The notes: generated from the letters alone by a model not told the origin. A DNA stretch of 32,000 nucleotides from Propionibacteriaceae bacterium (GCA_031256725.1 JAIRQE010000021.1:60001-92000); one strand, 5' to 3'. Shown: positions 1,388 through 28,985, numbered from the stretch's first letter. A program made the numbers and translations.

Positions 1388-4300
1388 ATGAACGAGAGCC
1401 CCAGGTACCCCGGGATCCCTAATGTCATTAATGGTAATGGAGCCGTGGCTTATGTCATGGGACACGTATGTGGGGGGGTGATTGGATACCCTATTACTCC
1501 GTCGACGGAAATCTCGGAAATCTTTGAGGCTGCGCGCGCGGATGGGCAACTCAACGTATGGGGAAAGCACCCGTTCTTCGTTGAATCTGAGGGTGAACAC
1601 TCAGCCCAATCGGGAGCCCTCGGAGCAGCACTCACAGGTGGCAACTACATCTCGAATGCGAGTTCTGCCCAGGGGATCCTCTACGCCTTGGAGTCACACT
1701 ATGTGACTGCGGGGAAGAAGATTGGTGGGTTCGTACTCCACGTGGCTGCACGTGTGGTGACTCGCCACTCCTTGAACGTCATGGCGGGCCATGATGACAT
1801 CTATTCGCTTATCCCAACGGGGTATACGATCCTCTTCGGGTCCGATCCCCAGGAGGCGGCTGACCTCGCGGCCATCGCCTATAGGACGAGTTCCCTGTCA
1901 CTGATTCCGGTCGCCAATGCCATGGACGGGTTCGCAACCTCTCATGTCATGAGCGAGGTACTTCTCCCCGAGTCGGATCTTCTTCACATCTATCTTGGTG
2001 ATCCCGCTGGTCGTATCCCTTGCCCGACACTCGCCCAGGAGGTTCTCTTTGGTGCAAAGGGTCGCGTCGAGTACCTCCTCAAATGGGTGAAGGATCATCG
2101 CAGTTCCCTCTCGGCCGAAAACTTCACTGCCCTCCATCTCATTCTCACCCAGAATGTGGATGCTATCGAATCCGATAACGAGGGCCACCTTATCTCCAAG
2201 GTTGATGATTATATCCCTGAGGCTCTTCGTGGAGCATGGAAGAGGGCTTGGAAGGGTGCTTGGGCTAAGGGTACCCGTCAACGCGTTCCAGCGATCATCG
2301 ATCCCAATAATCCCGGTCTCGCAGGTGGGGTACAAAACCAACCCGATTTCCAGGCCGGTGCAGCCGACCACCGTACCCATTTCGCCGCCGCTGTACCCAT
2401 GCTTGTTCGCCAAGCCATGCAGGAGTACTCCGAACTCACTGGTCGCACATATTCCCCTGTTCACCGATATGGCCCCGAGGATGCTGATCTGGTCCTGGTT
2501 GGTATGGGTTCAATCACCGACGACGCGAGGGCGCTCCTGCCGTACCTTGAAACCCAAGGGTTGAGGGTCGCTGTAGTCTCAGTAAAACTCCTGCAGCCTT
2601 TCCCGACTGAAGAGTTGATCGCTGCCCTTGGTTCCGCACGACATGTCACGATTCTGGAGCGTTCCGAGGATCTGGTGTTGACTGGAGAAGTCAAAAAGGC
2701 ACTGTTTGAATCAGGGATGAGTGCCAGGGATCTTGGACTTACGACAGCCATCTTCGGTCTGGGCTCCCATGATGTACAACCGCGTGACCTGATCGCTGTC
2801 GTCAAGAAGATGACTGACAACAATCCACCGTCATTGGTCTATGTTGGTTCACAGTTCTTCGTTAAGAATCCTGCATCCGACAAGCTCATTGAACTCCAAA
2901 CCAAGATGCGTGCCGCCTATCCTGAGACCGAGGCTATGGCGCTGGAAACTGGCGAGAACCCCACTGGTTTGATGCCTGCCGAGGCTCTGAGGATTCGTTT
3001 CCACTCAGTGGGTGGCTATGGAACGGTTGCGACCGGCAAGCTGTTGACCGACATGCTGTCGTCGATGCTGAATATGCATTCCAAGTCGTCTCCGAAGTAC
3101 GGCTCTGAGAAGTCGGGCGCACCCACGAACTTCTATATCACCTTATCTCCTGAGCCTGTACTGTTCACGAATGCCATGCTTGAAGAGGTGGAGGTTGTGA
3201 TCTCGCCTGACCACAAGGTCTTTGAGCATGAGCGTCCCTTGAGGGGTCTGGTCCCTGGTGGAACGTTCATCCTCCAGTCGGATCGTAATCCACTCGAAGT
3301 CTGGGCTGGACTACCCGCCTATGCCCGCGAGGAGATCAAGACCAAGAAGATTCGTTTCCTCGTGATTGATGCATTCGCAGTGGCTAAGGTTCATGCTCCG
3401 ACCGCGAACCTTGAAACCCGGATGATGGGTGTCGCCTTTATCGGTGTGGTGATGGGTCATGTGGATCGTGTCTCACATGGTGCTGATCTTGAGCAGGTCA
3501 AGGTCTTGATCCGCAAGGAATTGGATAAAAAGTTCGGTTCCAAGGGTGGTGCCGTCGTTGAGGGCAATTTGTCAACGATCGTGGACGCTATTGCTGCAAC
3601 GACTGTTGTGAATTATGAGGCTCCTGAGTTTGCAGCTGCTGAGGTTGAGGCTGCAGAGAAGACACCTGTACTCACAGGCAAGCTCATGCGTAGTCCTGGG
3701 TTCACTCCCACGGGTATGTTCGATCCAGAATACTTCGATGACCTGTTGGGTCGCCCCTTCCGTGAAGGATGGGCTGGTTCTTCACCCGTACTTCCAGGAA
3801 CCGGTTTGTTCATTCCCTCAGCGTCGGCGGCAACCAAGAATAAGGGGCTGTTCAGACGTGACGTACCAGTGGTCGACATCCAGAAATGTACCGCCTGTCT
3901 AGAATGTGCAATCGCTTGTCCTGATTCGGCAATCCCCAACCAGGCACATGAACTCGCTGATGTGATCGCCCGAGCCATTGGGGCCACCAAGCTCCAAGAC
4001 GACCACAAGGCGTACCTCCTCGGTTTCGCTGCCCCCTGGGCTGAAAGGGTACGAGCGGCACTCCTCGAAGACACGTCGATCAAGACGCTTAGTGAGGTCA
4101 TTCGCAAGACTTCGGATGCTGTACCTTCGATCCCGAGTACCCATATCAATGCCATCGTTGAGGAACTTGAGGCCTTCCCCGTTGGGCGTATCCGCCCCAT
4201 CTTCGACCAGATGGAGAAGAAGGAATCTGGTACAGGTGCACTGTACTCTGTGGTCATCGACCCGTGGAAGTGTACCGGTTGTCTGCAATGTGTGGATGTC

Positions 4301-6352
4301 TGCGGGCCCGGCGCTCTGAGTGCTGCCACCCAGGAGGACGCCATGGTTACTGCCATGGAATCCACCTTTGCTCGGTTTGCTCAGCTACCGAATACTCCTT
4401 CGCGGTTCACTGAGGGCGCGGCTGCCCCAGGTGGGGATGCCAAGCGCGTGCTCATGGATCACAATAACTATTACGCTCTGGCTGGCGGCCATGGTGCATG
4501 CAAGGGATGTGGAGAGGTCACAGCAACCCACCTTGTCACTGCACTCGCTGAGTCTGTGGGTCAGGAGAAGAGGCGCAAGCGCATCGCACAATTAGAAGCC
4601 CTTATCTATTCGCTGACCGCGAAGGTCAGTGTCGTTGACCCAGATCGTGCGAACAGGATCCAGCGGGTCATCTCCCTGCTGGAGGCAAGCCTATGGCGTT
4701 ACGAATCCGGCCCGACAGGTAAGGGTCCAGCCTCCACAGTGATCGTCAACTCGACTGGCTGCTCCTCGGTGTACGGGTCGACCTTCCCCTTTAACCCCTT
4801 CACTCAACCGTGGGTCAACTCCCTCTTCCAGGATGCTCAGGCAAGCGCGATGGGCGTTTTCGAGGGGCTCGTTTCTACTTATGTTGAAGAGGTACAAGCT
4901 TGCCGAATCGCCAAGATGGAACTGGAGGATTCCTTCATCCCAGGTGAGGCAGAATCCGGCCTCGCAACCCTGAATTGGCGTGAGTTCACTGACGAGGAAA
5001 TGTCACAACTACCGTTGGTGCTCACCATCTCTGGTGACGGTGCAGCCTACGATATCGGCTTCGGCGCGATGTCGAGGGTACTCGCGTCCCAGACTCCAGT
5101 GAAGATGCTCGTCTTGGATACAGGCGGCTATTCCAACACGGGTGGTCAGGCTTCAACCGCGACCTTCACGGGACAGAATGCTGACCTTGCTCGTCACGGC
5201 AAGGCCCACAAGGGCAAGACCGAGAAGCGTAAAGAATTGGCTCTGTTGGCGGCCCTCCATCCCGGAGTCTTCGTCGCCTCGGTTTCTGCGGCCTTCCATT
5301 CCCACTTCATGGCTGCCACTGCTCGTCTGTTGGCCTACCCCGATGGTTCGGGCGTACTCCAGGTCTACACCCCATGTGGGTTCGAGCAGGGCTTCGCCGA
5401 CGATCTGTCGAACGCCAGATCCCAAGAAGCGATACGCGCGCGCATGGCTCCCCTGTTCGTTCACGATCCCGATGGTGGTCCGTCAATCAGCGACCGGATC
5501 TCCCTCGACGGCAACCCTGAGATCGACAAGGCTTGGGCGACACGCAACCTGAAGTACGTCGATGAGACAGGTCAGACCAAGATCCACACCTCGCCGATGA
5601 CTCCAGCGGAGTTCGCCTATAGTGAGATTCGCTTCGCTAAGCACTTCACCCCCTTAGCTGATACGGTCGAGAATCCGACCCCCATTGCTGAGTTCGTTGA
5701 ACTCAGCATCGAGGATCGCCAGGGTCGTACCCCCTTCATCACGGTCGCTGAGAATGGTGCTCTGAAGAGGATCGAAGTCTCGGCAGCAATCGTCGAACTT
5801 GTTGAGGATCGACAAAGGTATTGGCAGTTGCTCAGGTACCTCGCTGGTCGCGATTCCCAGATCCAGGCCAAGGATGCCGAAGCAGCACTCAAGGCTATCC
5901 GCGAGGAACTCGATACGGCCATCGCCTCACGCGAGGAAGGCATTGATGCGATTGCCCATGCACTGGCATCCCTGGCCACCGCCAGTGATCCGAAAACCGT
6001 AGCCATCCCAAGCTTCGGTTCCACCCCAACTCCAGTGGCTACACCTGTACCGCAGGCAAGTACCCCCGCAGCGACGGTTCCCCAGGCTCCCGTAGCCTCA
6101 GGTTTGGGAGCGAAACCTGCGGGTGCGCCAATCTGGTTGGCTGAGCAGGATGTACCAAAATGTACGGACTGTGCGACCTGCTACCAGGAGCTACCCTCGA
6201 TCTTCGAGCAGACCACCATTGTGGTCAATGGCGAAGCCAAGGATGTCTCCCAAATGAAGCAGGGTTGTCTGGACGGGTTGGAGGTAACACCAGAATTGGT
6301 GAGCCTTATGGATCGAGTTAAGGGTACCTGCGACGCGGAGATCATCCAGTGA
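1388..6352 (+). CDS. pyruvate/2-oxoacid:ferredoxin oxidoreductase family protein, atypically long (1654 aa), with a C-terminal ferredoxin-like domain
   Basis: - Domain I: GYPITPSTEISE.
- Gamma domain: FHSVGGYGTVATGKLL.
- Two CxxCxxCxxxCP ferredoxin motifs: CTACLECAIACP and CTGCLQCVDVCGP.
- Proximal cluster: CKGCGE.
- TPP motif: SGDGAAYDIGFG...LVLDTGGYSNTGGQAS.
- Pro/Thr/Ala-rich linker followed by KCTDCATCY...GTCDAEII.
- AAGGGAAGG Shine-Dalgarno upstream of the ATG. Confidence 0.9.
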   Translation: MNESPRYPGIPNVINGNGAVAYVMGHVCGGVIGYPITPSTEISEIFEAARADGQLNVWGKHPFFVESEGEHSAQSGALGAALTGGNYISNASSAQGILYALESHYVTAGKKIGGFVLHVAARVVTRHSLNVMAGHDDIYSLIPTGYTILFGSDPQEAADLAAIAYRTSSLSLIPVANAMDGFATSHVMSEVLLPESDLLHIYLGDPAGRIPCPTLAQEVLFGAKGRVEYLLKWVKDHRSSLSAENFTALHLILTQNVDAIESDNEGHLISKVDDYIPEALRGAWKRAWKGAWAKGTRQRVPAIIDPNNPGLAGGVQNQPDFQAGAADHRTHFAAAVPMLVRQAMQEYSELTGRTYSPVHRYGPEDADLVLVGMGSITDDARALLPYLETQGLRVAVVSVKLLQPFPTEELIAALGSARHVTILERSEDLVLTGEVKKALFESGMSARDLGLTTAIFGLGSHDVQPRDLIAVVKKMTDNNPPSLVYVGSQFFVKNPASDKLIELQTKMRAAYPETEAMALETGENPTGLMPAEALRIRFHSVGGYGTVATGKLLTDMLSSMLNMHSKSSPKYGSEKSGAPTNFYITLSPEPVLFTNAMLEEVEVVISPDHKVFEHERPLRGLVPGGTFILQSDRNPLEVWAGLPAYAREEIKTKKIRFLVIDAFAVAKVHAPTANLETRMMGVAFIGVVMGHVDRVSHGADLEQVKVLIRKELDKKFGSKGGAVVEGNLSTIVDAIAATTVVNYEAPEFAAAEVEAAEKTPVLTGKLMRSPGFTPTGMFDPEYFDDLLGRPFREGWAGSSPVLPGTGLFIPSASAATKNKGLFRRDVPVVDIQKCTACLECAIACPDSAIPNQAHELADVIARAIGATKLQDDHKAYLLGFAAPWAERVRAALLEDTSIKTLSEVIRKTSDAVPSIPSTHINAIVEELEAFPVGRIRPIFDQMEKKESGTGALYSVVIDPWKCTGCLQCVDVCGPGALSAATQEDAMVTAMESTFARFAQLPNTPSRFTEGAAAPGGDAKRVLMDHNNYYALAGGHGACKGCGEVTATHLVTALAESVGQEKRRKRIAQLEALIYSLTAKVSVVDPDRANRIQRVISLLEASLWRYESGPTGKGPASTVIVNSTGCSSVYGSTFPFNPFTQPWVNSLFQDAQASAMGVFEGLVSTYVEEVQACRIAKMELEDSFIPGEAESGLATLNWREFTDEEMSQLPLVLTISGDGAAYDIGFGAMSRVLASQTPVKMLVLDTGGYSNTGGQASTATFTGQNADLARHGKAHKGKTEKRKELALLAALHPGVFVASVSAAFHSHFMAATARLLAYPDGSGVLQVYTPCGFEQGFADDLSNARSQEAIRARMAPLFVHDPDGGPSISDRISLDGNPEIDKAWATRNLKYVDETGQTKIHTSPMTPAEFAYSEIRFAKHFTPLADTVENPTPIAEFVELSIEDRQGRTPFITVAENGALKRIEVSAAIVELVEDRQRYWQLLRYLAGRDSQIQAKDAEAALKAIREELDTAIASREEGIDAIAHALASLATASDPKTVAIPSFGSTPTPVATPVPQASTPAATVPQAPVASGLGAKPAGAPIWLAEQDVPKCTDCATCYQELPSIFEQTTIVVNGEAKDVSQMKQGCLDGLEVTPELVSLMDRVKGTCDAEIIQ

Positions 6353-9033
6353 ACGCCCACGCAGCAGAGTTGGCCCTGATTGCCCGCCGACTTGAGGAGA
6401 ACCCCAGAGCCTTCCGCGACATGTTTATCGCTGACGGTGTCTCCACGGTCGCCTCGGAATTCTCTCAAGAGTTGAATGCCGAGTTTGTGACGAAGCTGTG
6501 GGAGATACTTCTTGATGGGGGAGACGCGGCGAGTGCGTTGATGAGGTTCCTGTGGCACCTGCCTGTTGCTAAGCAACGTGTGTGGCTGCGAGGGGTGGAT
6601 ACCCACCTTTCTGAGCGTTATCCGATGTTCAAGGGTCTCTCGGATTCCTGGCCGGCGCAAAATGGGATGGGGCCCTATATTCGTACCCCTGAATCCAGAT
6701 CCAACGACTTCGAGCTCGTCAATCAGGGGTACATGGGGTACATGTCCATCGGGTACACCCTGCGCGAAGTTGAACTCTTTGTATGGTTGGAATCTCTGCG
6801 TGACAAGCAGTGTTCCGAGAAGCCCTGCGAGATCGGGAAACTCATCGAAGGACACAAGGAACGTAAGGGTGGATGTCCTGTACAAATACACATCCCGACG
6901 ATGTTCGAACTCATTGGTCTCGGCAAATTTGATGAAGCCCTCGCGATGTTGGAGGATTGCAACCCACTACCGAATGTGACTGGGCGTGTTTGCCCCCAGG
7001 AACTCCAATGCCAGGGTGTGTGCATCCACAAGCTGCCCATGTCGATTGGTCAGATCGAATGGTTCCTGCCTGAATGGGATAAGGCCGCCCATCCTGGTGA
7101 GGCTTTGGTTCGCGTTGAGGGTACCCCCGATCCGTGGCTGACAAGCACAAAGCCTCCCGTGGCTGTCGTCGGTTCTGGACCAGCCGGCCTGATCAACGCC
7201 TACTTGTTGGCGCGTGCCGGGTTCCCGGTGACCATCTTTGAGGCTTTCCATGAACTCGGTGGGGTACTCCGTTTCGGGATCCCCGAGTTCCGTTTACCCA
7301 ATCAGCTCATTGATGATGTTGTGGAGAAGATTCGCGCCCTCGGTGGTCGCTTCGTCACCAACTTCGTTGTCGGCAAGACAGCAACCCTTCAGGATCTCCA
7401 AGACGCCGGATTTGCTCGAATCTTTGTGGGTTCCGGCGCAGGTCTTCCGATGTTCCTGAATGTTCCAGGCGAGGAACTCCTTAACGTGATGAGCGCCAAC
7501 GAGTTCCTCACCCGCGTCAACCTCATGCACGCCAATCTCCACGAGTACAAGACCCCACTGCCCTATGTGGAGGGTCGCAGTGTGCTCGTGATTGGTGGTG
7601 GGAACACTGCCATGGATGCCGCACGTACAGCACGACGACTCGGTGGGAATGTGACCATCGTGTACCGTCGAACGAAATCCGAGATGCCCGCTCGTGAAGA
7701 GGAACTCCATCACGCGCTCGAAGAGGGGATCCAGGTCGCTGAGTTGCGAAACCCAGTCGAGTTCATCGGCAACGAGAACCACTTCGTGGAGAAGGCAGTG
7801 CTTGATGTGATGAAGCTCGGTGAGCCCGATGACTCTGGTCGTCGACGCCCGATCTCTACTGGTGGTACAGAAACCATGGATGCCTCGTTGGTCATCATGG
7901 CTCTCGGAAACTCCGTGAACCCGATCATCCGCGAATCCGAACCCAGGTTGGATGTCACCAAATGGGGTACAGTCATCCTCCGCAAGGATGCCCAAGAGAC
8001 CTCACTTGATGGTGTTTTCTCCGGTGGTGACGCGGCCCGTGGTGGCTCGACTGCCATCCGTGCAGCTGGTGACGGTCAGAGTGCCGCCCGCGAAATCATG
8101 ACTGCCACCGGAGTGATGGGAAACCGTACCAAAGCTCTCGAATTCACTGAGCGCGCTCAAACAGTTCCAGTGATCATAGCCAAGCGTGAACTCACTCCAG
8201 GGATCGTCGAATTCCGTGTACAGTCACCCGCAATCGCATCCTCGGCCCAGGCCGGGCAATTCGTACGCGTCCATCCTCGTGATCGCGGCGAACTCATCCC
8301 GCTGACCCTGGCCGATTGGAATGCTGATGAAGGCTGGATCGCCCTCGTTGTCCAAGCCATGGGTGTCAGTTCGATTGAGATCAACCAGATGGAAGTAGGA
8401 CAGTGCTTCGAGGGCATCGCTGGCCCTCTGGGTCGCCCCTCCCATCTAGAGAAGGTACCAGGCGGTCAAACTGTCGTATTCACCGCCGGTGGATTGGGGC
8501 TCCCCCCAGTCTTTCCGATCATGCGTGAACACCTACGTTTGGGCAACCATGTCACACTCATCGCTGGCTTCAGATCTAAGGACCTCATGTTCTGGACTGA
8601 GGAGGATGACTATGTGGGCCAGATGAAAGCCCAGTACGGCGACCTCCTGGACATCATCTATGCCACGAATGATGGATCCTATGGGATTGAGGGTTTCGTG
8701 ACCGTACCCTTGAAAGAGATGCTTGACAAGAAGCATCCCATTGCCAAGGTTGTGACCATTGGTCCACCCATGATGATGCGTTCAGTTTCCGACCTTACGA
8801 AGCCGTACGGTGTACTCACTGAGGCCAGTCTTAATGCGTTGATGGTTGACGCAACAGGGATGTGTGGTGCCTGTATGGTTCCCTACGAAGAGGATGGCAA
8901 ACTCGTACGCAAGCATGCCTGTGTGGATGGGCCCGAGTTGGAGGCTCATCGGATCGACTGGGACAAATTCCTTCCACGGTTTAACTTGTTTAAGACTCAG
9001 GAGATGGAAGCGCGTAGTCGTCACGGGTACTAG
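6349..9033 (+). CDS. fused NfnB/GltD-like (FAD/NAD(P), Fe-S) and NfnA/PyrK-like (FAD, 2Fe-2S) oxidoreductase with an extra N-terminal domain (894 aa)
   Basis: - GTG start overlaps the PFOR stop (GTGA).
- GltD-like motifs: GRVCPQELQCQGVC, VAVVGSGPAGL, VLVIGGGNTAMDAART.
- PyrK/NfnA-like C-terminal half: QFVRVHP...LIPLTLADW, TAGGLGLPP, MVDATGMCGACMV...ACVDGPE. Confidence 0.88.
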   Translation: MNAHAAELALIARRLEENPRAFRDMFIADGVSTVASEFSQELNAEFVTKLWEILLDGGDAASALMRFLWHLPVAKQRVWLRGVDTHLSERYPMFKGLSDSWPAQNGMGPYIRTPESRSNDFELVNQGYMGYMSIGYTLREVELFVWLESLRDKQCSEKPCEIGKLIEGHKERKGGCPVQIHIPTMFELIGLGKFDEALAMLEDCNPLPNVTGRVCPQELQCQGVCIHKLPMSIGQIEWFLPEWDKAAHPGEALVRVEGTPDPWLTSTKPPVAVVGSGPAGLINAYLLARAGFPVTIFEAFHELGGVLRFGIPEFRLPNQLIDDVVEKIRALGGRFVTNFVVGKTATLQDLQDAGFARIFVGSGAGLPMFLNVPGEELLNVMSANEFLTRVNLMHANLHEYKTPLPYVEGRSVLVIGGGNTAMDAARTARRLGGNVTIVYRRTKSEMPAREEELHHALEEGIQVAELRNPVEFIGNENHFVEKAVLDVMKLGEPDDSGRRRPISTGGTETMDASLVIMALGNSVNPIIRESEPRLDVTKWGTVILRKDAQETSLDGVFSGGDAARGGSTAIRAAGDGQSAAREIMTATGVMGNRTKALEFTERAQTVPVIIAKRELTPGIVEFRVQSPAIASSAQAGQFVRVHPRDRGELIPLTLADWNADEGWIALVVQAMGVSSIEINQMEVGQCFEGIAGPLGRPSHLEKVPGGQTVVFTAGGLGLPPVFPIMREHLRLGNHVTLIAGFRSKDLMFWTEEDDYVGQMKAQYGDLLDIIYATNDGSYGIEGFVTVPLKEMLDKKHPIAKVVTIGPPMMMRSVSDLTKPYGVLTEASLNALMVDATGMCGACMVPYEEDGKLVRKHACVDGPELEAHRIDWDKFLPRFNLFKTQEMEARSRHGY

Positions 9034-9228
9034 TTTGTGACTGTATTTCGTGGATGCATTATGCATTTGCAGAATTTGTGGCTGGTGTGTTTCTAGCAAT
9101 ATCGTTTCAGTTTTTGAAAAGGTATCTTAGGACTGTCTCCGGGGCATGAATGTTGGCAAAAACGAACCGATCCCGCTGTACTGAGTGTATGCTGATTCTC
9201 TAGGTTCCTCGCGGGGCAGGATGGGAGT

Positions 9229-10395
9229 ATGCGCATCGCAGTCTTGGGGGCTGGGTACGTTGGTTTTTCTAATGCTGTGGTCATGGCCCAGCATCATGAT
9301 GTGGTGGTTGTTGATGTTGACCCCGCCAAGGTACGAAGTATTACCCGCCAAGAGTCGCCTGTTTCAGAGATGGCGCTTTGTGAGTTTTTCAACAGTGTAC
9401 GCAGTTCCTTGGCGGCAACTACGATCCTGGGTGAGGCGGTGGAGGGTGCGGACTGGGTGATTATTGCTACCCCGACTGACTATGATCCGAGGACTCGGCA
9501 TTTCGATACATCGTCGGTGGAGGAGTGTATTGCCCAGACACTTCAGGTTAATCCCGAGGTCGGGATTGCTATTCGGTCAACAATTCCGGTGGGGTTCACT
9601 GATCGGATGAGGCAACAGTATGGGAGTACGCGAATCCTATTTGTCCCTGAATTTCTTCGGGAGGGACAGGCTCTGGAGGATTCCCTGAATCCGTCACGAA
9701 TCATCGTGGGGGATCTCAATGAGGATGCTGAAGCTTTTGCTGGGATTCTAAGACAGGCATGCGCTCGTTCGGATGTACCCATGTTGTTCACTGGTACCCG
9801 TGAAGCGGAAGCCATCAAGTTATTTGCGAACTCCTATTTGGCCTTGCGGGTTGCGTATTTTAATGAGATTGACACCTATGCGATCTCGCAGGGGCTTGAT
9901 ATCCACTCCATCATTATGGGGGTCGGCTTGGATCTGCGCATTGGTACCCACTACAACAATCCATCGTTCGGATACGGAGGTTACTGTCTGCCCAAGGATA
10001 CGAAACAGCTTCTCGACAACTATTCGGGGATCCCCCAAGATCTGATCTCGGCAGTGGTACGGGCCAATGAGACCCGCCAGACCTTCATTGCCTACGACAT
10101 CCTGGCTCGAAATCCGAAGACTGTTGGAATCTATCGCCTCATCATGAAAGCTGACTCCGACAACTATCGTTCCTCATCTGTTCTGGGGGTCATTGAGGTA
10201 CTCAAGGAGTCCGATGTCACGGTTGTGATCTATGAGCCCATTGCTCGCGGATCACGGGTGGCTGACTGCGAGATCATTGAGGATCTTGCTGAGTTCAAAC
10301 GCAGAAGCGATGTCATCGTGGCGAATCGCAGGTCTGTGGATCTTGGAGACGTGGCTGCGAAGGTGTACACCAGGGATCTGTACTCCAGAGATTGA
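9229..10395 (+). CDS. ugd: UDP-glucose 6-dehydrogenase
   Basis: N-terminal Rossmann motif MRIAVLGAGYVG, catalytic-Cys motif GYGGYCLPKD, and a length of 388 aa typical of the UDP-glucose/GDP-mannose dehydrogenase family. Confidence 0.9.
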   Translation: MRIAVLGAGYVGFSNAVVMAQHHDVVVVDVDPAKVRSITRQESPVSEMALCEFFNSVRSSLAATTILGEAVEGADWVIIATPTDYDPRTRHFDTSSVEECIAQTLQVNPEVGIAIRSTIPVGFTDRMRQQYGSTRILFVPEFLREGQALEDSLNPSRIIVGDLNEDAEAFAGILRQACARSDVPMLFTGTREAEAIKLFANSYLALRVAYFNEIDTYAISQGLDIHSIIMGVGLDLRIGTHYNNPSFGYGGYCLPKDTKQLLDNYSGIPQDLISAVVRANETRQTFIAYDILARNPKTVGIYRLIMKADSDNYRSSSVLGVIEVLKESDVTVVIYEPIARGSRVADCEIIEDLAEFKRRSDVIVANRRSVDLGDVAAKVYTRDLYSRD

Positions 10396-10417
10396 TCTCC
10401 TGTTGTATCCTGGTTTC

Positions 10418-11500
10418 ATGGACTTGGAAGGGCAAAGGCCCCTAGGTGGAGATCAAGGAGAATTGTATGCGCCCCCACCGCTTGTACCTTCTGATCCTGC
10501 GCCGGTACCTCCGGTGGCTGAGTCTCTAGCTGTGTGGCCGCAGACCTATGAGTCCTTTCCCGTTGAGGATCCTCCCAAGAAGTCGACATGGTTGAGGAAT
10601 CCATCCGGGTTCGTTGTTTTCCTGGTGGTGGGCCTTGTTGGGATAATCACTTACACGGTGGGCACGATCACTAGCCCATGGATTTCGAACATGGATGGCT
10701 CCGTGGTTGTTGAGCCAGTTGAGGGAACCGATTGGTGGTTCGTCGAGTTGGGGGAGGATGTGATTCCCAGCATCCAGGAGGTTGTGAACGAAGACTATCG
10801 AGCGAGTTCCTATGATGAACTCACGGACAATTACCTCATAGTGCATTACACGGTTTCTGTCACGGGTGAGGACCTTGAGACCTACATCCGATTCCTGGTT
10901 GATAATGAGGGTTTCCGTATCGCGCTCTACTCAGACTTCACTCGGTCTCCTGGTAGGGCGTACCTATGGAAACCCTCTGCGGAGACAGACAAGGCTCTCA
11001 CCATAGGTATCTGGTACGGTGTGGATGCTAGTGGCAAGGTTAACTGTGGGATTACGTACTTCCTTGACCCGAAACCCGAACCAGACGAACAACCATTGTT
11101 TTTCCACTACAAGAGACCACCGGGCTGGGAGATAAGTGTGGGTACATTTGAGTGGCTGGTTTTTGAAAAGGATGAGTCTGAGATCGTCCTTGTCAACGAC
11201 AGGGCCTTCGATTTGTGGGATGGGTCACCGCAGACTTGGGAAGAATGGACTGATCATTCGCGGGTGGCCCTTGACAGTCATGGTGTGTACTCCGAGATCA
11301 CCGAGAATGAGCGGATCACTGTCGGGGTTCATGAGGGGATTGAGTACCACTACACCGTCGCCGAAACTGGGTACGAAGGAAGGGTTTTCGCCGTACCGAA
11401 TTCCCATGATGTCCTCAGTGTCCGATGTACTATTCCCAAGGATCGGGACAAGGAAATGAGGGACTGTACTGACCTGATCGAGAGTATCGAATTCACTTAG
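10418..11500 (+). CDS. membrane-anchored hypothetical protein (Pro-rich N-terminus, 1 TM, about 250-aa extracytoplasmic domain); paralogue of the next gene
   Basis: ATG at 10418 is the first start after the ugd stop; the 10232 start would overlap ugd by 164 nt. TM segment: FVVFLVVGLVGIITYTVGTI. Shares FLVxNEGFR, LWxxS and C-terminal C...C..xxES blocks with 11702..12928. Confidence 0.7.
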   Translation: MDLEGQRPLGGDQGELYAPPPLVPSDPAPVPPVAESLAVWPQTYESFPVEDPPKKSTWLRNPSGFVVFLVVGLVGIITYTVGTITSPWISNMDGSVVVEPVEGTDWWFVELGEDVIPSIQEVVNEDYRASSYDELTDNYLIVHYTVSVTGEDLETYIRFLVDNEGFRIALYSDFTRSPGRAYLWKPSAETDKALTIGIWYGVDASGKVNCGITYFLDPKPEPDEQPLFFHYKRPPGWEISVGTFEWLVFEKDESEIVLVNDRAFDLWDGSPQTWEEWTDHSRVALDSHGVYSEITENERITVGVHEGIEYHYTVAETGYEGRVFAVPNSHDVLSVRCTIPKDRDKEMRDCTDLIESIEFT

Positions 11501-11522
11501 TTGGATCTCTTCGATGGGTGGG

Positions 11523-11546
11523 TGTTAGGGGACGTATCTCCTGACA
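11523..11546 (+). promoter_or_regulatory. 24-nt hairpin element TGTTAGGGGA-CGTA-TCTCCTGACA (copy 2); possible terminator or leader structure
   Basis: Same right arm and loop as copy 1. The left-arm changes (CG to TA) keep both pairs: C-G becomes U-G and G-U becomes A-U. It lies 22 nt after the stop of 10418..11500, is followed by CTTTGAT, and is 156 nt upstream of the 11702 start. Confidence 0.5.
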
Positions 11547-11701
11547 CTTTGATCAGGGTACCCCACCCCTGCGCTTGTCTTCCAGGACGCACCTTGGTCC
11601 GGGTAGTCACCCCAGTTTCCTTGTGAGACCATTGATGAAGATGATAGTGCTCTTCGTGGAGGGACTTCCTCTAGGGATGTCCGGGAGAAACAAGGAGGAT
11701 C

Positions 11702-12928
11702 GTGGTCAAGATCTGCCAGCACTGCCAGGTGGAGTCCGCTAGTACGGCCTACCTGTGTAAGGGGTGTGGGCGTGTCCTACGACCCCCCGGTACGATGACC
11801 CCGACTCGAAAGGTACCAGGTCGAGCCGTCGGAGATGGTACCCCCCGGCGCGGATTGGGTGTCGAGTCCAGACTTCCGGCGGGCTATGAATCCGCCGTAC
11901 CATCGCGGGGGAATGCAGATGAACCGAGTGGCTCTGAACCAAGTATCCACAGTCACCAAAGAGTTCAGTCCGAACCCTCGAATGAACCTAACGTAGAAGC
12001 TGATCTGGTCCAGAACGGGGGATTGGATCGACCCAGGTTTGTGGCTCCCGTGGTACCAAAGAAGAAAAATCAGGCTCTTCGGCGACTTCTTGCCCTTGGG
12101 ATAGCATGGGTATTAGTCCTTGTGGGGGTCTCTTTCCTCTATGTACATAGTATGGGGCGGCTCGATTTTTACACCCTTGGTGAGGATCAGATCACCTCGG
12201 TTAAGGGTGTCGTGGGCGCTCGACATGTGTATGAGTGGCATCGGGAATCCCATGAGTGGTCGTGGCGGTTGAACCTGGATTATCGTGTTCCTCGCGAAGC
12301 GACAAGGGACGTGGAAGCATATAGTGCCTTCCTGGTGGCCAACGAGGGATTCCGTGTTGTGGAGGCTCCCGATTTCGAGCAGCCCACTGGGGTGGTTGTC
12401 CTGTGGCGTGAATCAGAGAATCCTTTCGAAGACGTGATAGTGAGGATTCGCTATTGTGAATCGGGGTACACGTTGGAGTTCCTCAAGAACAGGCGTTCTT
12501 CTGAGTTGGTGCCCGCTCTTGATCCTGGGGCTGAGAGTGCCATTACTCTTCGCATCGAACCTGTTGAGGGATGGACCTCGGTCGGGGGTTCCACGGAACT
12601 TGAATACTCGTCTGACAAGGGTTTTTTTGGGATAGGGGTACGCTACCTTCCATCCGGGATGACTGCCAAAGAGTATGTTGAGGGGGTACATCAGGCGGCT
12701 TCGGCAAACTCCGTTGAGCGTACGAGTGTCACTGAAATGAGTGAGGTCTCGGTTGTAGGATTCAATGGGTGGGAATTCTTCAGGACCGTTGGGGTTGTGG
12801 AAACCCGAGAAACCTTCCTCCATGATGGCCCCCGAATCTACCGAGTCTCATGCATCCTCATGTCAAAATCATCCGATGAGGATTACGGGCAATGTACGGA
12901 AATGATGGAGTCTCTCACTACGTCATGA
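11702..12928 (+). CDS. zinc-ribbon / single-TM / extracytoplasmic-domain hypothetical protein; paralogue of the previous gene
   Basis: GTG start with a strong AAGGAGGA Shine-Dalgarno at 11692-11699. N-terminal CxxC-x10-CxxC (CQHC...CKGC), a disordered linker, and TM segment LLALGIAWVLVLVGVSFLYV. The C-terminal domain aligns by eye with 10418..11500. Confidence 0.8.
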   Translation: MVKICQHCQVESASTAYLCKGCGRVLRPPGTMTPTRKVPGRAVGDGTPRRGLGVESRLPAGYESAVPSRGNADEPSGSEPSIHSHQRVQSEPSNEPNVEADLVQNGGLDRPRFVAPVVPKKKNQALRRLLALGIAWVLVLVGVSFLYVHSMGRLDFYTLGEDQITSVKGVVGARHVYEWHRESHEWSWRLNLDYRVPREATRDVEAYSAFLVANEGFRVVEAPDFEQPTGVVVLWRESENPFEDVIVRIRYCESGYTLEFLKNRRSSELVPALDPGAESAITLRIEPVEGWTSVGGSTELEYSSDKGFFGIGVRYLPSGMTAKEYVEGVHQAASANSVERTSVTEMSEVSVVGFNGWEFFRTVGVVETRETFLHDGPRIYRVSCILMSKSSDEDYGQCTEMMESLTTS

Positions 12929-12940
12929 ATCCTGGGGGTG

Positions 12941-12964
12941 TGTCAGGGTACGAATCTTCCTAGA
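12941..12964 (+). repeat. degenerate third copy of the hairpin element (TGTCAGGGTACGAATCTTCCTAGA)
   Basis: About 17/21 matches to copy 2 with one indel, but the stem is largely lost. It lies 13 nt after the stop of 11702..12928. Confidence 0.35.
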
Positions 12965-12983
12965 TGTGCGAAGTTTGAAGAGT

Positions 12984-14186
12984 TTAGGTCGGATTGATGG
13001 GTACGTACCCAGTGTCTTCGATAAGGCGCTGGCCTTGGGGGGAGAGAATCCAGTCAACGAGCTCCTTGGTTGTACCCGTGGGCTCGCCAACAGTCACAGC
13101 ATAGAAGTCACCTACGAAAGGATAGGTACCATTGTGGATGGTCTCGGTCGTGGGCATTACCCCATCGACACCAAGGAGTTTGGTATCCGGGTTGGAGTAC
13201 ATTGTTGTCGCGAAGTACCTATAGGAGTAGCCGAGCGCAGGTTGTACCCCTTGCCATTCGACCGAGACCTGTTGTACCAGAGAATTCTCCCCAAGAAGGC
13301 TCGGATCGGGCAGCGGTTGGGGTACCTGAATGGGAATCTGACGCCCAATGAAAGCCGCAAGACCGGTCTGGCTACCTGAACCTTCAGGGCGTTGGAAGGC
13401 GATAATTTGGCCACCCTCGTTCCAGCCAAGAGTACGCCACTGGGAAGTTTTGCCGGAGTAGATCGCGCGCAACTGATCCTGGGATACTTCGGTGATGGGG
13501 TTATCTTTGCCCACGAGGAAGACAAAGGCCTCGCGCCCAATCGGAGTGAACACCAACTCGATCCCAGCCTGGCGAGCGGCTTCTCTCTGCTTCTGGGAGG
13601 CCTGAGCCACGAAGATCACATCAGCCTCACCGGTCATCAGCGCCTCAAAAGAACCGCGGGTGTTGGTACACACAACGTCATCCTCGGTGAAAGTCTGTCG
13701 GTCGTAAGCGGCTTCAGCGAAGGCCGAATAGAGGGGGTACGAGGCGGTCGCGCCATCGAGTTTGGGGAGGTTTCCGGTCAGGGTGAGGTCCGATTTCTCG
13801 TCTAGTTTCACGGTGAGGGAACCCTCGAGGAAGGGGGCGTACAAGGTGAGGTCCGGGGCAGCCTCACCGGTAGTGGAGGCGGTCGGGTTGATCCACCAGT
13901 TCCCACGAAGTGCATTAGGGAAAAGCGCGACGGATGCGACAAGGATAATGGCAAGAATGATCGTGGATGCGCGGTTACTACGGTGGCGGATCCATGTCAG
14001 GGCAATAATCATGGCGACTGCAGTGGCGATGAGAACAACCGGGATCATACCCACGATATTGTCGGTGACGTGGAATTGGGAGAGGTACTCGAAGTGTTCG
14101 AGGATGATCAAACCGATGACCAGCGCGGCGATTGAAATGGTGATTTTCAGAACTGTCCCTATGGGCAGTGCATTGCGACGAATCAT
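12984..14186 (-). CDS. PstS-family (PBP_like_2) substrate-binding domain protein with an N-terminal 3-TM anchor
   Basis: Binding-domain motifs LDGATASYPLYS and QRPEGSGSQTG, plus IFVAQASQKQ. Three hydrophobic helices lie in the first about 95 aa. Confidence 0.75.
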   Translation of the reverse strand: MIRRNALPIGTVLKITISIAALVIGLIILEHFEYLSQFHVTDNIVGMIPVVLIATAVAMIIALTWIRHRSNRASTIILAIILVASVALFPNALRGNWWINPTASTTGEAAPDLTLYAPFLEGSLTVKLDEKSDLTLTGNLPKLDGATASYPLYSAFAEAAYDRQTFTEDDVVCTNTRGSFEALMTGEADVIFVAQASQKQREAARQAGIELVFTPIGREAFVFLVGKDNPITEVSQDQLRAIYSGKTSQWRTLGWNEGGQIIAFQRPEGSGSQTGLAAFIGRQIPIQVPQPLPDPSLLGENSLVQQVSVEWQGVQPALGYSYRYFATTMYSNPDTKLLGVDGVMPTTETIHNGTYPFVGDFYAVTVGEPTGTTKELVDWILSPQGQRLIEDTGYVPINPT

Positions 14187-14404
14187 TGTTTTTCCTTCAA
14201 TGTTTCTTGGCCCCCGCGTTATTGGGTCTTCATCATCTTGGTACGGCCCTCGCTGTTTAGCGAAGGACTCCTATCCATCTGAGCGTTTCCTTGGTTATTC
14301 TGTTTCATGTATCCTCCTCCACGTCGCAGGATCCAGATAGTCGATCAGATGATACGAGTATGAAGATCTTGACAGGATTCGGGTCTGGGCGAATTCTTCT
14401 AACG

Positions 14405-14764
14405 TCACATCAGTGATATCAAGCCAGTATAGGCGCCGATAAAGAAGAAGAGAACGAATACGATGATGATGACTGGGATCGCCACAGCAATGGCTGCCAG
14501 GATGACACCAACCACCCCGATTCGATTCTTCGCCCTACTGAGGCAGATAGCGCCAATGATCAACCCTGCGATGGGACCCACCATGGTGATGAGAAGAACC
14601 ACGCCAGTTATGTACACGCCCATCCATGTGACGATGTATCCCACGAGTACCGGAAGAAAAACCAGTCCAAGGGCCAGCAGTGGAAGCCCGACCCCTTGAA
14701 GTTTAGGGACCAACTGGGTGGGAGTATCATCGGAGATCTCGGTCGGCTCTTGAATAACGCTCAT
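14405..14764 (-). CDS. small integral membrane protein (119 aa, 3-4 TM), unknown family
   Basis: Open frame with strongly hydrophobic helices. No convincing Shine-Dalgarno, so the start is uncertain. Confidence 0.55.
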   Translation of the reverse strand: MSVIQEPTEISDDTPTQLVPKLQGVGLPLLALGLVFLPVLVGYIVTWMGVYITGVVLLITMVGPIAGLIIGAICLSRAKNRIGVVGVILAAIAVAIPVIIIVFVLFFFIGAYTGLISLM

Positions 14765-15220
14765 ACCTTCAAGGATACGGAGAAAACTAAGGAGTACAAC
14801 CCCCTGGTCATTCTGGGTATAGACATGGGCCTTGGGGTGTTCCTCAACCCAGAGGGAAACCTCTACCCGCCTTCGATATTAAGCGACCGTGTACAAGTAC
14901 GGCATAGAAAATCGCACCAGAAACACTGTATCCGGCTGAAAACCTCGACTCTAGTTCCCCATGAACCTGAAAGAAGGAACTAATGGAGTGGAATTCCGAG
15001 AGGGTGCATCGATTTAGGGACGTACTTCGTGATTCCTCAAGAGTCGTCGGCTCCAGAAGGATTGCTTCTGTGGTATTCAAAGGATCTTGTAGTTGGTGAA
15101 CAGGGATACATAGCATGAGTGAGATTAAAATAATCAAAGATGTCTTGACGTCCTAATTATTAGGATATTTCGTTATCAAAAGAAGAATCCTCGTGGGTGC
15201 TTCACCCCATCCCCGCTTTC

Positions 15221-15242
15221 AGCGGCGAGACAGCGGCGAGAC
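15221..15242. repeat. tandem 11-bp duplication (AGCGGCGAGAC x2) covering the 3' end of tRNA-Ser
   Basis: Exact adjacent copies at 15221-15231 and 15232-15242. The second copy is part of the tRNA acceptor and T stem. Confidence 0.9.
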
Positions 15243-15318
15243 AGGGATTCGAACCCTGGAGGCTGTTACACCTGGCCGCTTTCAAGGCGGCTGCACTAGA
15301 CCACTATGCGATCTCGCC
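15234..15318 (-). tRNA. tRNA-Ser (anticodon UGA)
   Basis: Hand-folded cloverleaf:
- acceptor GGCGAGA/TCTCGCC
- D arm GCAT-AGTGGTCTA-GTGC
- anticodon stem GCCGC/GCGGC with loop CTTGAAA
- 16-nt long variable arm
- T arm CAGGG-TTCGAAT-CCCTG
- discriminator G; no encoded CCA. Confidence 0.9.
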
Positions 15319-26427: not shown

Positions 26428-27942
26428 TCACTCCTTGACGTCGTCATCTACCCACTCGAAGGTCTTAGTGACGGCCTTCTTCCAGTTGCGGTACAGTCGG
26501 TCGCGCTCGGAGGAATCCATTGCGGGCAGCCAGCGCTTGTCTTCTGCCCAGTTAGCGATAACGTCTTGCTCGCCATTCCAGAATCCGACGGCGATGCCAG
26601 CTGCATAGGCTGCACCCAAAGCGGTTGTTTCTGCAACCACAGGGCGTACCACAGGGACACCAACCATGTCAGCCTGGAACTGCATAAGGGTGTTATTGGC
26701 GGTCATACCACCATCAACCTTCAGTTCAGCGAGCTTAGCACCCGAGTCGGCTTCCATAGCATCCAGTACCTCGCGGGTCTGGAAAGCGGTTGCTTCAAGG
26801 GCTGCACGAGCAATATGCCCGCGATTAACGTACCTGGTCAAACCGACGATTGCGCCACGGGCGTCACCACGCCAATAGGGAGCAAACAACCCGGAGAATG
26901 CGGGTACGAAATAAGCCCCACCATTGTCCCCAACAGACAGAGCCAGTTTCTCAACCTCGGGGGAGGAATCGAACATGTTGAGGTTGTCGCGCAGCCACTG
27001 TACGAGCGAACCAGTGACAGCAATGGAACCCTCAAGGGCGTAGACAGGCTTCGAGTCACCGATCTGATAGCATAGGGTGGTGAGGAGGCCATTCTTGGAG
27101 AAGACCGGCTCTTCGCCTGTGTTCATCAGCATGAAGCAACCCGTACCATAGGTGTTCTTCGCCTTGCCGACCTCGAAGCAGGCCTGGCCAAAGGTTGCAG
27201 CCTGCTGGTCACCCAAGTCACCCGAGACGGGAAGACCGGCGACAACTGGCTCCTTCGCAGTGCCATAGACCATGGATGAGGGCTTGATTTCGGGAAGCAT
27301 GGACATCGGGATCGTCATGTCGGCTGCGATGTCGGTTGCCCAGGAGAGAGTACGGGCATCCATGAGCATCGTACGTGAGGCGTTCGTCACATCGGTGATG
27401 TGGAGTCCGCCATCGACGCCGCCGGTGAGGTTCCAGATGAGCCATGTGTCGATGTTGCCCATGAGGAGTTTTCCAGCCTCTGCTGCGGCGCGGGCGCCAT
27501 CAACATTATCCAGAATCCACTTCACCTTTGGGCCTGAGAAGTACGTAGCCAGTGGGAGACCCACGCGGGAAGCGTACTTATTCTGATCGCCGCCGCCGAG
27601 TTCGTCGACGATAGCTTGGGTACGGGTGTCCTGCCACACGATTGCGTTATAGACCGGTTGACCCGTGGTCTTGTCCCAGACGACTGTTGTCTCACGCTGG
27701 TTGGTGATACCGATTGCTGCGATGTCATCCTTGGTGACCTTGGCAGCGTTCAATGCACCTGTGATGACCTGTACGGTACGGGTCCAGATTTCGATCGGAT
27801 CATGCTCAACCCAACCGGCGCGGGGGAAGATCTGCTCGTGTTCGAGCTGATGGCTTCCCTCAATACGCCCGGCGTGATTGAAGACGATTGCGCGTGAGCT
27901 GGTCGTGCCGGAGTCGATAGCTAGGATGTACTTTTCTGACAT
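26428..27942 (-). CDS. glpK: glycerol kinase
   Basis: [17 protein letters not shown]...[12 protein letters not shown]-terminus, 504 aa, downstream of glpF. Confidence 0.95.
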
Positions 27943-28908: not shown

Positions 28909-28985
28909 CAATGATGCCTAGTAGTCGATGGACCCAATCTTGCCGAAGTTTGGGCGTTTGATCCAGACCGTGGGAGAATGTGCAA

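Follow-up and report, generated by a model that had tools for sequence, protein, structure and literature searches.

What would a long 2-oxoacid oxidoreductase gain from being encoded in overlap with a flavoprotein that could pass its electrons on to NAD(P)+? This question is raised by a stretch of 32 000 nucleotides from a Propionibacteriaceae bacterium (GCA_031256725.1, JAIRQE010000021.1:60001-92000; hereafter the window, from whose first letter all coordinates are counted). On its + strand lie two open reading frames: ORF1 (1388..6352, ATG start), coding for a single-chain protein of 1654 residues similar to pyruvate:ferredoxin oxidoreductase (PFOR), and ORF2 (6349..9033, GTG start), coding for an 894-residue fusion of the two Nfn modules, NfnB and NfnA. 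We consider it very probable that the two products form a dedicated electron-transfer pair. The full mechanism, with pyruvate as substrate, a tethered domain of ORF1 as carrier and an Nfn-type confurcation by ORF2, is a proposition that could as easily fail as hold.

The domain content of ORF1 is that of a PFOR. Indeed, Pfam profiles follow one another in the canonical order POR_N, PFOR_II, POR (gamma), Fer4 and TPP_enzyme_C, and delimit domain I (residues 31-197, 1478..1978; E 2.4e-33, aligning to residues 5-182 of the solved enzyme 6cin), domain II (residues 366-467; E 2.9e-10) and domain III or gamma (residues 542-732; E 3e-23), the latter two spanning 2483..3583. Domain V (3863..4312; Fer4 at residues 826-975) carries two [4Fe-4S] motifs, CTACLECAIACP (C834, C837, C840 and C844) and CTGCLQCVDVCGP (C962, C965, C968 and C972). 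Domain VI (4475..5482; TPP_enzyme_C at residues 1211-1315, aligning to 6cin 961-1106) combines the fold that binds thiamine pyrophosphate (TPP) with the ligands of the TPP-proximal [4Fe-4S] cluster (C1038, C1041, C1125 and C1330); it includes GACKGCGEV at residues 1036-1044 and the TPP motif SGDGAAYDIG...DTGGYSNTGGQ at residues 1215-1254. A first-pass annotation of the window had listed the PFOR hallmark motifs, and all of them are present, although the second dicluster motif reads CxxCxxCxxxCGP and does not strictly end in ...CP as stated there. Domain I also keeps YPITPST and HVAAR122, the carboxylate-binding Thr/Arg motifs common to solved PFORs. In an alignment of 60 full-length homologues taken from genome loci, 16 cysteines are invariant: eight in domain V, four near the TPP and four at the C-terminus (C1592, C1595, C1598 and C1648).

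ORF1 is thus, as far as its sequence can tell, a complete but very divergent PFOR. Its score on the equivalog model TIGR02176 is 370.3 bits, against a cut-off of 911.35, which places it outside the equivalog, as a PFOR-like enzyme of a separate clade. The closest solved relative, the Moorella thermoacetica PFOR (6cin), is matched in five collinear pieces (E 5.5e-83); with E-values from 1e-23 to 0, the assignments of ORF1 and ORF2 are not due to chance. More than 120 homologues of ORF1 were found, with lengths of 1620-1713 residues, and their annotation says only '2-oxoacid:acceptor oxidoreductase family protein'. Solved canonical PFORs measure 1171 and 1231-1232 residues, in agreement with the approximately 1170-1230 residues quoted in the first-pass annotation, and ORF1 is approximately 430-480 residues longer. 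Part of this excess lies in three insertions relative to 6cin, at residues ~193-302, 858-948 (between the cluster motifs of domain V) and 1053-1117; that of domain V, approximately 90 residues long, is poorly conserved (identity 0.21-0.25 in the 60-sequence alignment). A C-terminal extension contributes approximately 290 residues. It opens with a structured part missing from canonical PFORs (residues 1375-1531, 5510..5980), which the AlphaFold2 (AF2) model folds into a set of beta strands and then a long hairpin of helices (1466-1531), with a per-residue confidence (pLDDT) of 83-97. When the model of residues 1166-1654 was compared with the PDB by Foldseek, no significant match was obtained (best E 0.35); the TPP part of this fragment is modelled poorly without the rest of the enzyme.

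Compared with the homodimeric PFORs of Desulfovibrio africanus (1B0P) and M. thermoacetica (6CIN), ORF1 shares the single chain, the succession of domains I, II, III, V and VI, the GDG...YSNTGGQ motif, the three [4Fe-4S] ligand sets, YPITPS and HVAAR. It differs from them by the insertions, by the beta/hairpin extension, by a tether and a fourth-cluster ferredoxin at its C-terminus and by its pairing with NfnBA. Unlike these enzymes, it would dispense with a free carrier.

The tether is a Pro/Ala/Thr-rich segment (residues ~1532-1585, 5981..6142) delimited by alignment and by the AF2 model. In the 60 sequences its columns are gappy and variable in length, with an identity of 0.16-0.35, and residues 1544-1580 are predicted without secondary structure at a pLDDT below 50. 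It leads to a terminal domain (residues 1586-1654, 6143..6349, ending in CDAEIIQ) in which the four invariant cysteines are spaced C1592-x2-C1595-x2-C1598...C1648. The size and the CxxCxxC...C pattern of this domain are those of the single-cluster ferredoxins of Fer4_15 and Fer4_13 (approx. 60-70 residues). A profile of the domain matches a 72-residue ferredoxin of the PDB (7m1o/7m1n) over its full length (E 2e-4), and Fer4_15 detects 18 of 19 members (best E 1.4e-6); taken alone, the domain of the window's own ORF1 falls below the Pfam cut-off. Its pLDDT is 76-85. The claim that ORF1 contains a fused ferredoxin is thereby upheld, but not on the grounds first given for it: the CxxCxxCxxxC motifs cited belong to the ordinary domain V of every PFOR, whereas the fused ferredoxin is the Fer4_15-type domain at the end of the tether. 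This domain would act as an electron carrier.

ORF2 contains both halves of an Nfn enzyme in one polypeptide. Its NfnB-like module (residues ~145-590, 6781..8118, + strand) was recognized from a PDB match, residues 145-583 aligning to the large subunit of Pyrococcus furiosus NfnI (5jca_L, E 3e-106), and from the conservation of its ligands. It comprises a two-cluster domain, with the cluster segment GRVCPQELQCQGVC at residues 212-225, a flavin adenine dinucleotide (FAD) site (GSGPAG, residues 275-280) and an NADPH Rossmann fold with GGGNTA (416-421)...YRRT. The first-pass annotation had called this region GltD/NfnB-like, rightly, and had credited it with two GxGxxG motifs, the second of which is in fact GxGxxA. 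The NfnA-like module (residues 603-894, 8155..9030, + strand), with its FAD and NAD domains and [2Fe-2S] site, matches the NfnI small subunit over residues 609-885 (5jca_S, E 4e-66) as well as the Pfam families DHODB_Fe-S_bind and NAD_binding_1, and contains GMCGACMV...ACVDGP at residues 837-862, all of which bears out the earlier description of the C-terminal third as PyrK/NfnA-like. Its [2Fe-2S] ligands D834, C839, C842 and C858 are invariant in 56 homologues, which also show little or no variation at the CPQE glutamate ligand (E218) and in the YRRT NADPH signature. The AF2 model of ORF2 (pLDDT 78, predicted TM-score 0.75) superposes by Foldseek on the NfnI subunits with TM-scores of 0.84 (5jca_L) and 0.86 (5jca_S).

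The cluster ligands of the NfnB module are C155, C160, C176, C215, E218, C221 and C225 (residues 155-225, 6811-7026). In the first motif they are arranged as C-x4-C-x15-CP, with three invariant cysteines, compared with CxxC-x6-C-x3-CP in NfnI-L, and C160 and C176 are joined by a loop of variable length. ORF2 also differs by its N-terminal region (residues 1 to ~113, 6349..6687, + strand), part of a domain of approximately 110-150 residues with five predicted helices at residues 3-87, a conserved loop region and invariant W, P, R and Y residues (AF2 pLDDT 67-92). Pfam and PDB searches returned no relative of this domain. Matches to the Fer4_20 profile begin only at its position 33 in the ORF2 family, compared with positions 3-8 in other fusions of B-A order. 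We infer that the helical domain could be a candidate docking element for the PFOR. The idea that it is specific to PFOR-linked proteins is weakened by a standalone paralogue described below, which retains it. The homologues of most other lineages start at the overlapping codon and have 30-45 extra residues before this domain. In a few lineages the extension is shorter or longer, the overall range being 0-81 residues (loci L003-L078). These extensions resemble each other weakly, with Leu, Glu, Ala and Thr as their abundant residues; the extra segment is missing from the window and from the three relatives closest to it (L001, L002 and L005).

The link between the two genes is first apparent at their junction (6337..6352, + strand), which was read directly: a GGAG Shine-Dalgarno sequence (6337-6340) lies within the last PFOR codons and, 8 nt further, the GTG of ORF2 (6349-6351) overlaps the TGA of ORF1 (6350-6352). 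The GTGA overlap noted in the first-pass annotation is therefore found at 6349-6352, and overlaps of this type recur across phyla. Among the 64 junctions that are intact, 59 have a stop codon overlapping the start, by 4 nt (ATGA or GTGA) in 49 cases, 1 nt in five, 11 nt in four and 20 nt in one, the five others having gaps of 2-17 nt; GGAG stands 8 nt ahead of the downstream start in 59 of the 64. The junction DNA itself, GCGGAGATCATCCARTGA, is conserved and encodes the PFOR C-terminus ...CDAEII[QRHK]. A frameshift or a fusion of ORF1 and ORF2 into a single reading frame was ruled out, as they are read in different frames and 49 loci retain the overlapping ATG/GTG start, and a candidate internal start of ORF2 at 6370 was discarded on the latter ground.

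Conservation of the two genes as neighbours had been set beforehand as a refutation test of their functional link, a test that the link withstands. A scan of genomes with ORF1, limited to one genome per species, yielded 80 loci. Wherever more than 150 nt of downstream sequence was available (68 loci), an ORF2 homologue of 60-88% identity directly followed on the same strand, without exception; the 12 loci with no ORF2 homologue are all ended by a contig end. Conversely, a scan of metagenomes with ORF2 found a long PFOR directly upstream in 25 of the 27 close homologues with room upstream, several of these contigs being genome loci, so that the forward and reverse samples overlap. The nearest relatives are metagenome-assembled genomes (MAGs) of Propionibacteriaceae. 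Within Actinomycetota the loci belong to such MAGs (63-77% identity), to Cellulomonas, Demequina, Nostocoides, Piscicoccus, Kineosphaera and Brooklawnia, and to MAGs of Bifidobacteriaceae. Others come from Alphaproteobacteria (Cohaesibacter, Roseiarcus fermentans), Betaproteobacteria (Azoarcus, Propionivibrio, MAGs labelled Accumulibacter), Gammaproteobacteria (Brenneria corticis, Psychromonas) and one MAG of Eremiobacterota.

The two proteins also diverge together: pairwise identities of ORF1 and ORF2 are correlated with r = 0.93, a value reached in none of 1000 permutations of a Mantel test. No third gene (free ferredoxin, regulator, pta/ack or similar) is conserved around the pair in 67 loci, the largest neighbour cluster being an ABC ATPase present in eight of the 67. 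The two genes make up a self-contained unit and move as one.

An independent parallel is offered by a distant sister clade. A tblastn search against plasmids detected long PFORs on the megaplasmids of Gemmatirosa kalamazoonensis and Persicobacter psychrovividus, with 33-38% identity from residue 5 to approximately residue 1513. These proteins end in a CxxCxxC...C single-cluster ferredoxin domain (Fer4_15 E 3e-8 for Gemmatirosa) and possess the structured extension of ORF1, the tblastn alignments running to residues 1513-1539. The clade is large in Bacteroidota, with more than 100 clusters of 1617-1656 residues. No NfnBA gene follows the PFOR on the megaplasmids, where rnf genes are in place, and rnfC-D-G-E-A stands directly downstream in four of the five loci inspected (L128 ~6001-15205; L129 5977-15495; L130 8001-19837; L131 8001-19329; L132 927-12482). 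In Aquiflexum balticum, a Muricauda species and a Saprospiraceae MAG, the long PFOR is followed by rnfCDGEA and then by an NAD_binding_1 gene and rnfB; in Gemmatirosa (L128), the PFOR precedes rnfC, rnfD, rnfG and apbE, with an rnfB-like gene upstream.

The sister clade therefore resembles ORF1 in its long architecture, in its C-terminal single-cluster ferredoxin and in having a ferredoxin:NAD+ oxidoreductase encoded directly downstream. It differs in that this partner is the membrane Rnf complex and not a soluble NfnBA, in the spacing from PFOR to partner (gaps of 4-112 nt, without overlap) and in the ferredoxin domain, which runs approximately 25 residues past the last cysteine. No description of a long PFOR-Rnf operon was located in the literature. 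Long PFORs with a tethered ferredoxin thus sit in operons with either of two ferredoxin:NAD(P)+ oxidoreductases that are unrelated to each other, and no other indirect evidence speaks as strongly for the tethered domain as the element that hands over the electrons. The first-pass annotation would have been refuted had the long form been a well-characterized family with another known partner, which it did not prove to be.

Several known systems offer terms of comparison. In Euglena and Cryptosporidium, the pyruvate:NADP+ oxidoreductase (PNO) joins in one chain a PFOR and an FMN/FAD domain of the cytochrome-P450-reductase type. The PNO is like the ORF1-ORF2 pair in the net function proposed here, namely PFOR chemistry feeding NADP+ without a free carrier. 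It is an analogue only: the pair consists of two chains, with a ferredoxin tether and an Nfn-type flavoprotein, and membership of the PNO family was ruled out since Pfam detected neither a flavodoxin nor a cytochrome-P450-reductase domain in ORF1 or ORF2. With P. furiosus NfnI and NfnAB, ORF2 has in common both modules, the FAD sites, the NADPH and NAD sites, the CPQE glutamate and the Asp/Cys3 [2Fe-2S] site. It departs from them in being one polypeptide with B before A, as opposed to separate subunits encoded as nfnA then nfnB, in the extra N-terminal helical domain and three-cysteine first cluster motif, and in its proposed ferredoxin partner, which would be a domain of the neighbouring PFOR.

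Fused forms of Nfn are themselves on record. The first-pass annotation had regarded NfnA and NfnB as normally separate, which is usually so, but fusions are catalogued both as NCBIfam NF009415 (PRK12779) and as 'Pattern C' Nfn. ORF2 is a member of this group, with no difference in kind: it scores 1527 bits on NF009415 (cut-off 1519), covers positions 43-943 of the 944 of the profile, and shows the full-length B-A order, the N-terminal extension and the distribution in Actinobacteria and Proteobacteria. According to Liang, Huang and Wang (2019, PMC6405883), 'Pattern C', exemplified by Mobiluncus curtisii ADI67453, has the B-A order and is approximately 200 residues longer than other fused Nfn. 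The same source places it in Actinobacteria, Alpha- and Gammaproteobacteria and explicitly calls it uncharacterized (see also PMC6085437). In its accessible text no obligatory long-PFOR partner is described, although PFOR appears as an abbreviation in the legend of a gene-neighbourhood figure.

Physiological evidence comes from Propionibacterium and Acidipropionibacterium, where the PFOR gene is flanked by co-transcribed and co-regulated genes for a gltD-like/pyridine-nucleotide-disulfide oxidoreductase and for a protein like dihydroorotate dehydrogenase (DHOD; McCubbin et al. 2020, PMC7650540). In that study, PFOR expression on sugars was 2-3 times that of pyruvate dehydrogenase, PFOR knockout crippled growth, and a complex of PFOR with an Nfn-like enzyme, having bifurcating properties, was postulated from co-transcription, co-regulation and knockout. 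Unlike the ORF1-ORF2 pair, their model adds the upstream DHOD-like gene, which is not conserved in the loci examined here, and a quinol. The novelty of the present pair is thus partly anticipated, fused Nfn having been catalogued and a PFOR-Nfn complex postulated in 2020. The first-pass view of the long PFOR and NfnB-NfnA as one dedicated module is supported by adjacency, overlap, co-divergence and the want of a third gene, but the novelty is smaller than it implied. In our search of the literature, none of the sources found describes the long architecture, its tethered ferredoxin, the overlap and its conservation, or the cross-phylum distribution, and no biochemical study of a PFOR-NfnBA pair came up.

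The mechanism that we propose for the pair can be outlined as follows. ORF1 would be a TPP- and CoA-dependent 2-oxoacid oxidoreductase of the PFOR type, with three [4Fe-4S] clusters and a single-cluster ferredoxin on a tether of approximately 50 residues. ORF2 would be a complete one-chain Nfn, its NfnB part holding two Fe-S clusters, the bifurcating FAD and the NADPH site, and its NfnA part the [2Fe-2S] cluster, a second FAD and the NAD site. The tethered ferredoxin would collect single electrons at the distal cluster of the PFOR and deliver them to the clusters of NfnB, standing in for the soluble ferredoxin of classical Nfn. The net reaction would be pyruvate + CoA + NADH + 2 NADP+ -> acetyl-CoA + CO2 + NAD+ + 2 NADPH, and would be reversible, while the overlapping codons, together with the Shine-Dalgarno sequence contained in the end of the PFOR gene, would ensure that both chains are made in stoichiometric amounts. 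Pyruvate is the most probable substrate, to judge from the motifs, because the best family matches of ORF1 are PFOR/PorA models and because YPITPS and HVAAR are kept. Physical contact between the chains, confurcation of the Nfn type by ORF2 and operation in the oxidative direction are likewise what the arrangement suggests.

A number of observations weigh against this reading. The matches of ORF1 to PFOR/PorA models on which, together with the Thr/Arg motifs, the pyruvate assignment rests are all below their cut-offs. Alignment with NfnI-L calls for seven cysteines and a glutamate in the NfnB module, and ORF2 offers six invariant cysteines and E218; one of its clusters may therefore differ, which could alter or abolish bifurcation. 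Judging from the ligand pattern, one [4Fe-4S] cluster may be a [3Fe-4S] cluster, or a ligand other than cysteine, or supplied by the partner, may complete it. The Nfn stoichiometry of two NADPH per pyruvate is also awkward for a purely catabolic flux in fermenters. McCubbin et al. make no mention of a long form, a tethered ferredoxin or an overlap, and the PFOR that they studied need not be of the long type. Finally, the NfnBA gene occurs at times without its neighbour. The two exceptions among the 27 reverse-scan homologues (L096 and L097) show no PFOR in the 4.5 kb upstream to the contig end, and a standalone degenerate ORF2 paralogue, P0244 (L126 7001-9544, GCA_003391095.1; 847 residues, 36% identical), has no PFOR within 7 kb.

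These unpaired genes have features of their own. In L096 (4311-7208) and L097, Type III restriction/helicase genes and small unknown ORFs occupy the place expected for the PFOR, upstream of the NfnBA homologue (965 residues, 61% identical), and a gene for a HigB toxin lies downstream of it, an arrangement that may result from a mobile-element insertion that split the pair. In P0244 the N-terminal domain, the NfnA part and the cluster motifs are still present, and much of the NADPH-binding/FAD region (residues ~480-570) is gone. Hits on contigs of human-gut metagenomes (L111-L122 and L125) at first considered B-A fusions without the N-terminal domain were rejected as such: they have a different architecture of 1298-1305 residues, with N-terminal 2Fe-2S/4Fe-4S domains (NuoG/HydA-like) and a C-terminal NfnB-like module 38-41% identical to ORF2, and indicate only that distant NfnB modules exist without a PFOR neighbour.

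Four other explanations were considered for the same data. In the first, the dedicated wire is retained but ORF2 is a non-bifurcating reductase passing the electrons of the tethered ferredoxin on to NADP+ or NAD+, making the pair a bacterial analogue of PNO (pyruvate + CoA + NAD(P)+ -> acetyl-CoA + CO2 + NAD(P)H). Adjacency and tether fit this scheme equally well, the stoichiometry is simpler for catabolism, one cysteine is missing from the first NfnB cluster motif, and NfnB-like modules are known in non-classical contexts (NfnABC, StnABC). A distinct class of ferredoxin:NADP+ oxidoreductases is reportedly, by its title, the subject of a 2025 JBC paper. However, the NfnA module is complete, its Asp/Cys3 ligands and NAD-binding fold are invariant in 56 sequences, and it folds like NfnI-S (TM 0.86), all of which would be hard to explain with an idle NAD(H) branch. 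We therefore hold a non-bifurcating ORF2 to be unlikely, while keeping it in view.

PFOR and Nfn are both reversible, and the module might run the other way, as a reductive pyruvate synthase in which ORF2 bifurcates electrons from 2 NADPH to NAD+ and the tethered ferredoxin, powering the conversion of acetyl-CoA and CO2 to pyruvate in hosts without another means of reducing ferredoxin. Many hosts are indeed facultative or aerobic (Azoarcus, Cohaesibacter, a Brevundimonas MAG, Nostocoides), and in the sister clade, Rnf-wired in largely aerobic Bacteroidota, an Rnf running backward to reduce ferredoxin would make sense. Against this, no gene for CO2 fixation or acetate assimilation is conserved near the pair in the 67 loci, and many hosts ferment (Cellulomonas, Propionicimonas, Brooklawnia, Actinotalea fermentans, Roseiarcus fermentans and MAGs with names in the style of termite-gut metagenomes). 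In addition, the Acidipropionibacterium PFOR is more highly expressed on sugars and is linked with the formation of acetate (PMC7650540), and the reductive direction appears distinctly improbable.

A third possibility is mere co-expression. ORF1 would then reduce the soluble ferredoxin or flavodoxin pool, ORF2 would be a general Nfn by which that pool is re-oxidized, and the C-terminal domain would be a fourth relay cluster or a stabilizing or oxygen-protecting appendage. Classical PFOR and Nfn do communicate through diffusible ferredoxin, the C-terminal extension of D. africanus PFOR (domain VII) is linked to oxygen stability, and the cases of L096, L097 and P0244 indicate that NfnBA-like genes can be located apart from a PFOR. 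Yet the two genes are adjacent in 68 of 68 loci from several phyla, the 4-nt overlap is conserved and no other neighbour is, a much closer association than is usual for enzymes sharing a pool, and the co-divergence of ORF1 and ORF2 argues in the same sense. Moreover, a ferredoxin on a disordered tether of approximately 50 residues is unlike a fixed relay cluster, and a similar appendage is Rnf-wired in the sister clade, so that a pair linked by expression only seems very improbable. As for the quinol-linked confurcation of McCubbin et al. (2020), in which a PFOR/Nfn-like complex would use reduced ferredoxin and menaquinol to reduce NAD(P)+ and so solve the redox problem of lactate fermentation in propionibacteria, the co-transcription reported by the authors and the likeness of the upstream DHOD-like PACID_05160 to quinone-linked enzymes (PMC7650540) are set against the position of this gene outside the conserved module, the lack of any third conserved gene in 67 loci, the absence of membrane-protein or quinone-binding Pfam matches in ORF1 and ORF2 and the resemblance of the NfnA-like part to soluble NfnI-S and PyrK, and it has next to no chance of applying here.

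The dedicated pair can be placed in a wider frame, which we advance tentatively, as a proposal falling slightly short of evenly balanced. Long-form PFORs would constitute a distinct class of 2-oxoacid oxidoreductases, carrying their own ferredoxin on a flexible arm and genetically wired either to NfnBA (Actinomycetota, Proteobacteria and Eremiobacterota) or to Rnf (Bacteroidota and Gemmatimonadota). With NfnBA as the partner, the assembly would be a supercomplex with a swinging arm, coupling pyruvate oxidation to the NADH-assisted reduction of two NADP+, or the reverse, without a ferredoxin pool.

In the window, the pair is flanked by unrelated genes, for a DUF2461 protein and a UDP-glucose dehydrogenase, and the remainder is ordinary chromosome, with genes for a phosphate-binding protein, a TetR regulator, an ABC transporter, flotillin and IspH, a tRNA-Ser(tga) (15233-15318, - strand) and a glycerol-utilization cluster consisting of an FGGY kinase (glpK; 26428-27942, - strand), a MIP channel (glpF; 28150-28911, - strand) and a SorC-type sugar-binding regulator (28980-30002, + strand). 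A scan for promoters and terminators gave counts at or below those expected from shuffled sequence. The divergent region between the DUF2461 gene and ORF1 contains an 11-nt direct repeat, GGTCATGATTT (1070-1080 and 1087-1097, reported as 17 nt apart), and three copies of CTGACA within 1130-1222; repeat and hexamers could be regulator sites. Downstream of the pair, two + strand ORFs of 422 (10232-11500) and 408 residues (11702-12928) have no Pfam match. The latter starts with a zinc-ribbon-like CxxC...CxxC, and its homologues are confined to the two closest MAGs (L002 and L005), where they too lie downstream of the pair. The isolate names of the nearest relatives, the Propionibacteriaceae MAGs, hint at a possible origin in termite-gut metagenomes.

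PFOR and Nfn are thought to communicate via diffusible ferredoxin, and a PFOR with a built-in ferredoxin next to a one-chain Nfn would amount to a pyruvate:NAD(P) system independent of the ferredoxin pool. If the pair turned out to need free ferredoxin, it would be only an operon of two known enzymes. The two-gene unit is widespread and horizontally mobile, its hosts being facultative anaerobes of soil, wastewater, gut and plants (Cellulomonas, Propionibacteriaceae, Nostocoides/Tetrasphaera, Azoarcus, Brenneria and Psychromonas). It and the Rnf-linked sister clade would jointly represent a PFOR class of new architecture. If true, the proposed coupling would be a compact module for supplying NADPH from pyruvate, or for NADPH-driven CO2 fixation into pyruvate. 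It would also give a testable answer to the question raised for propionibacteria in 2020, namely where the electrons of PFOR go, and would account for the way in which low-potential electrons are disposed of, or generated, by propionibacteria, Cellulomonas and many facultative anaerobes.

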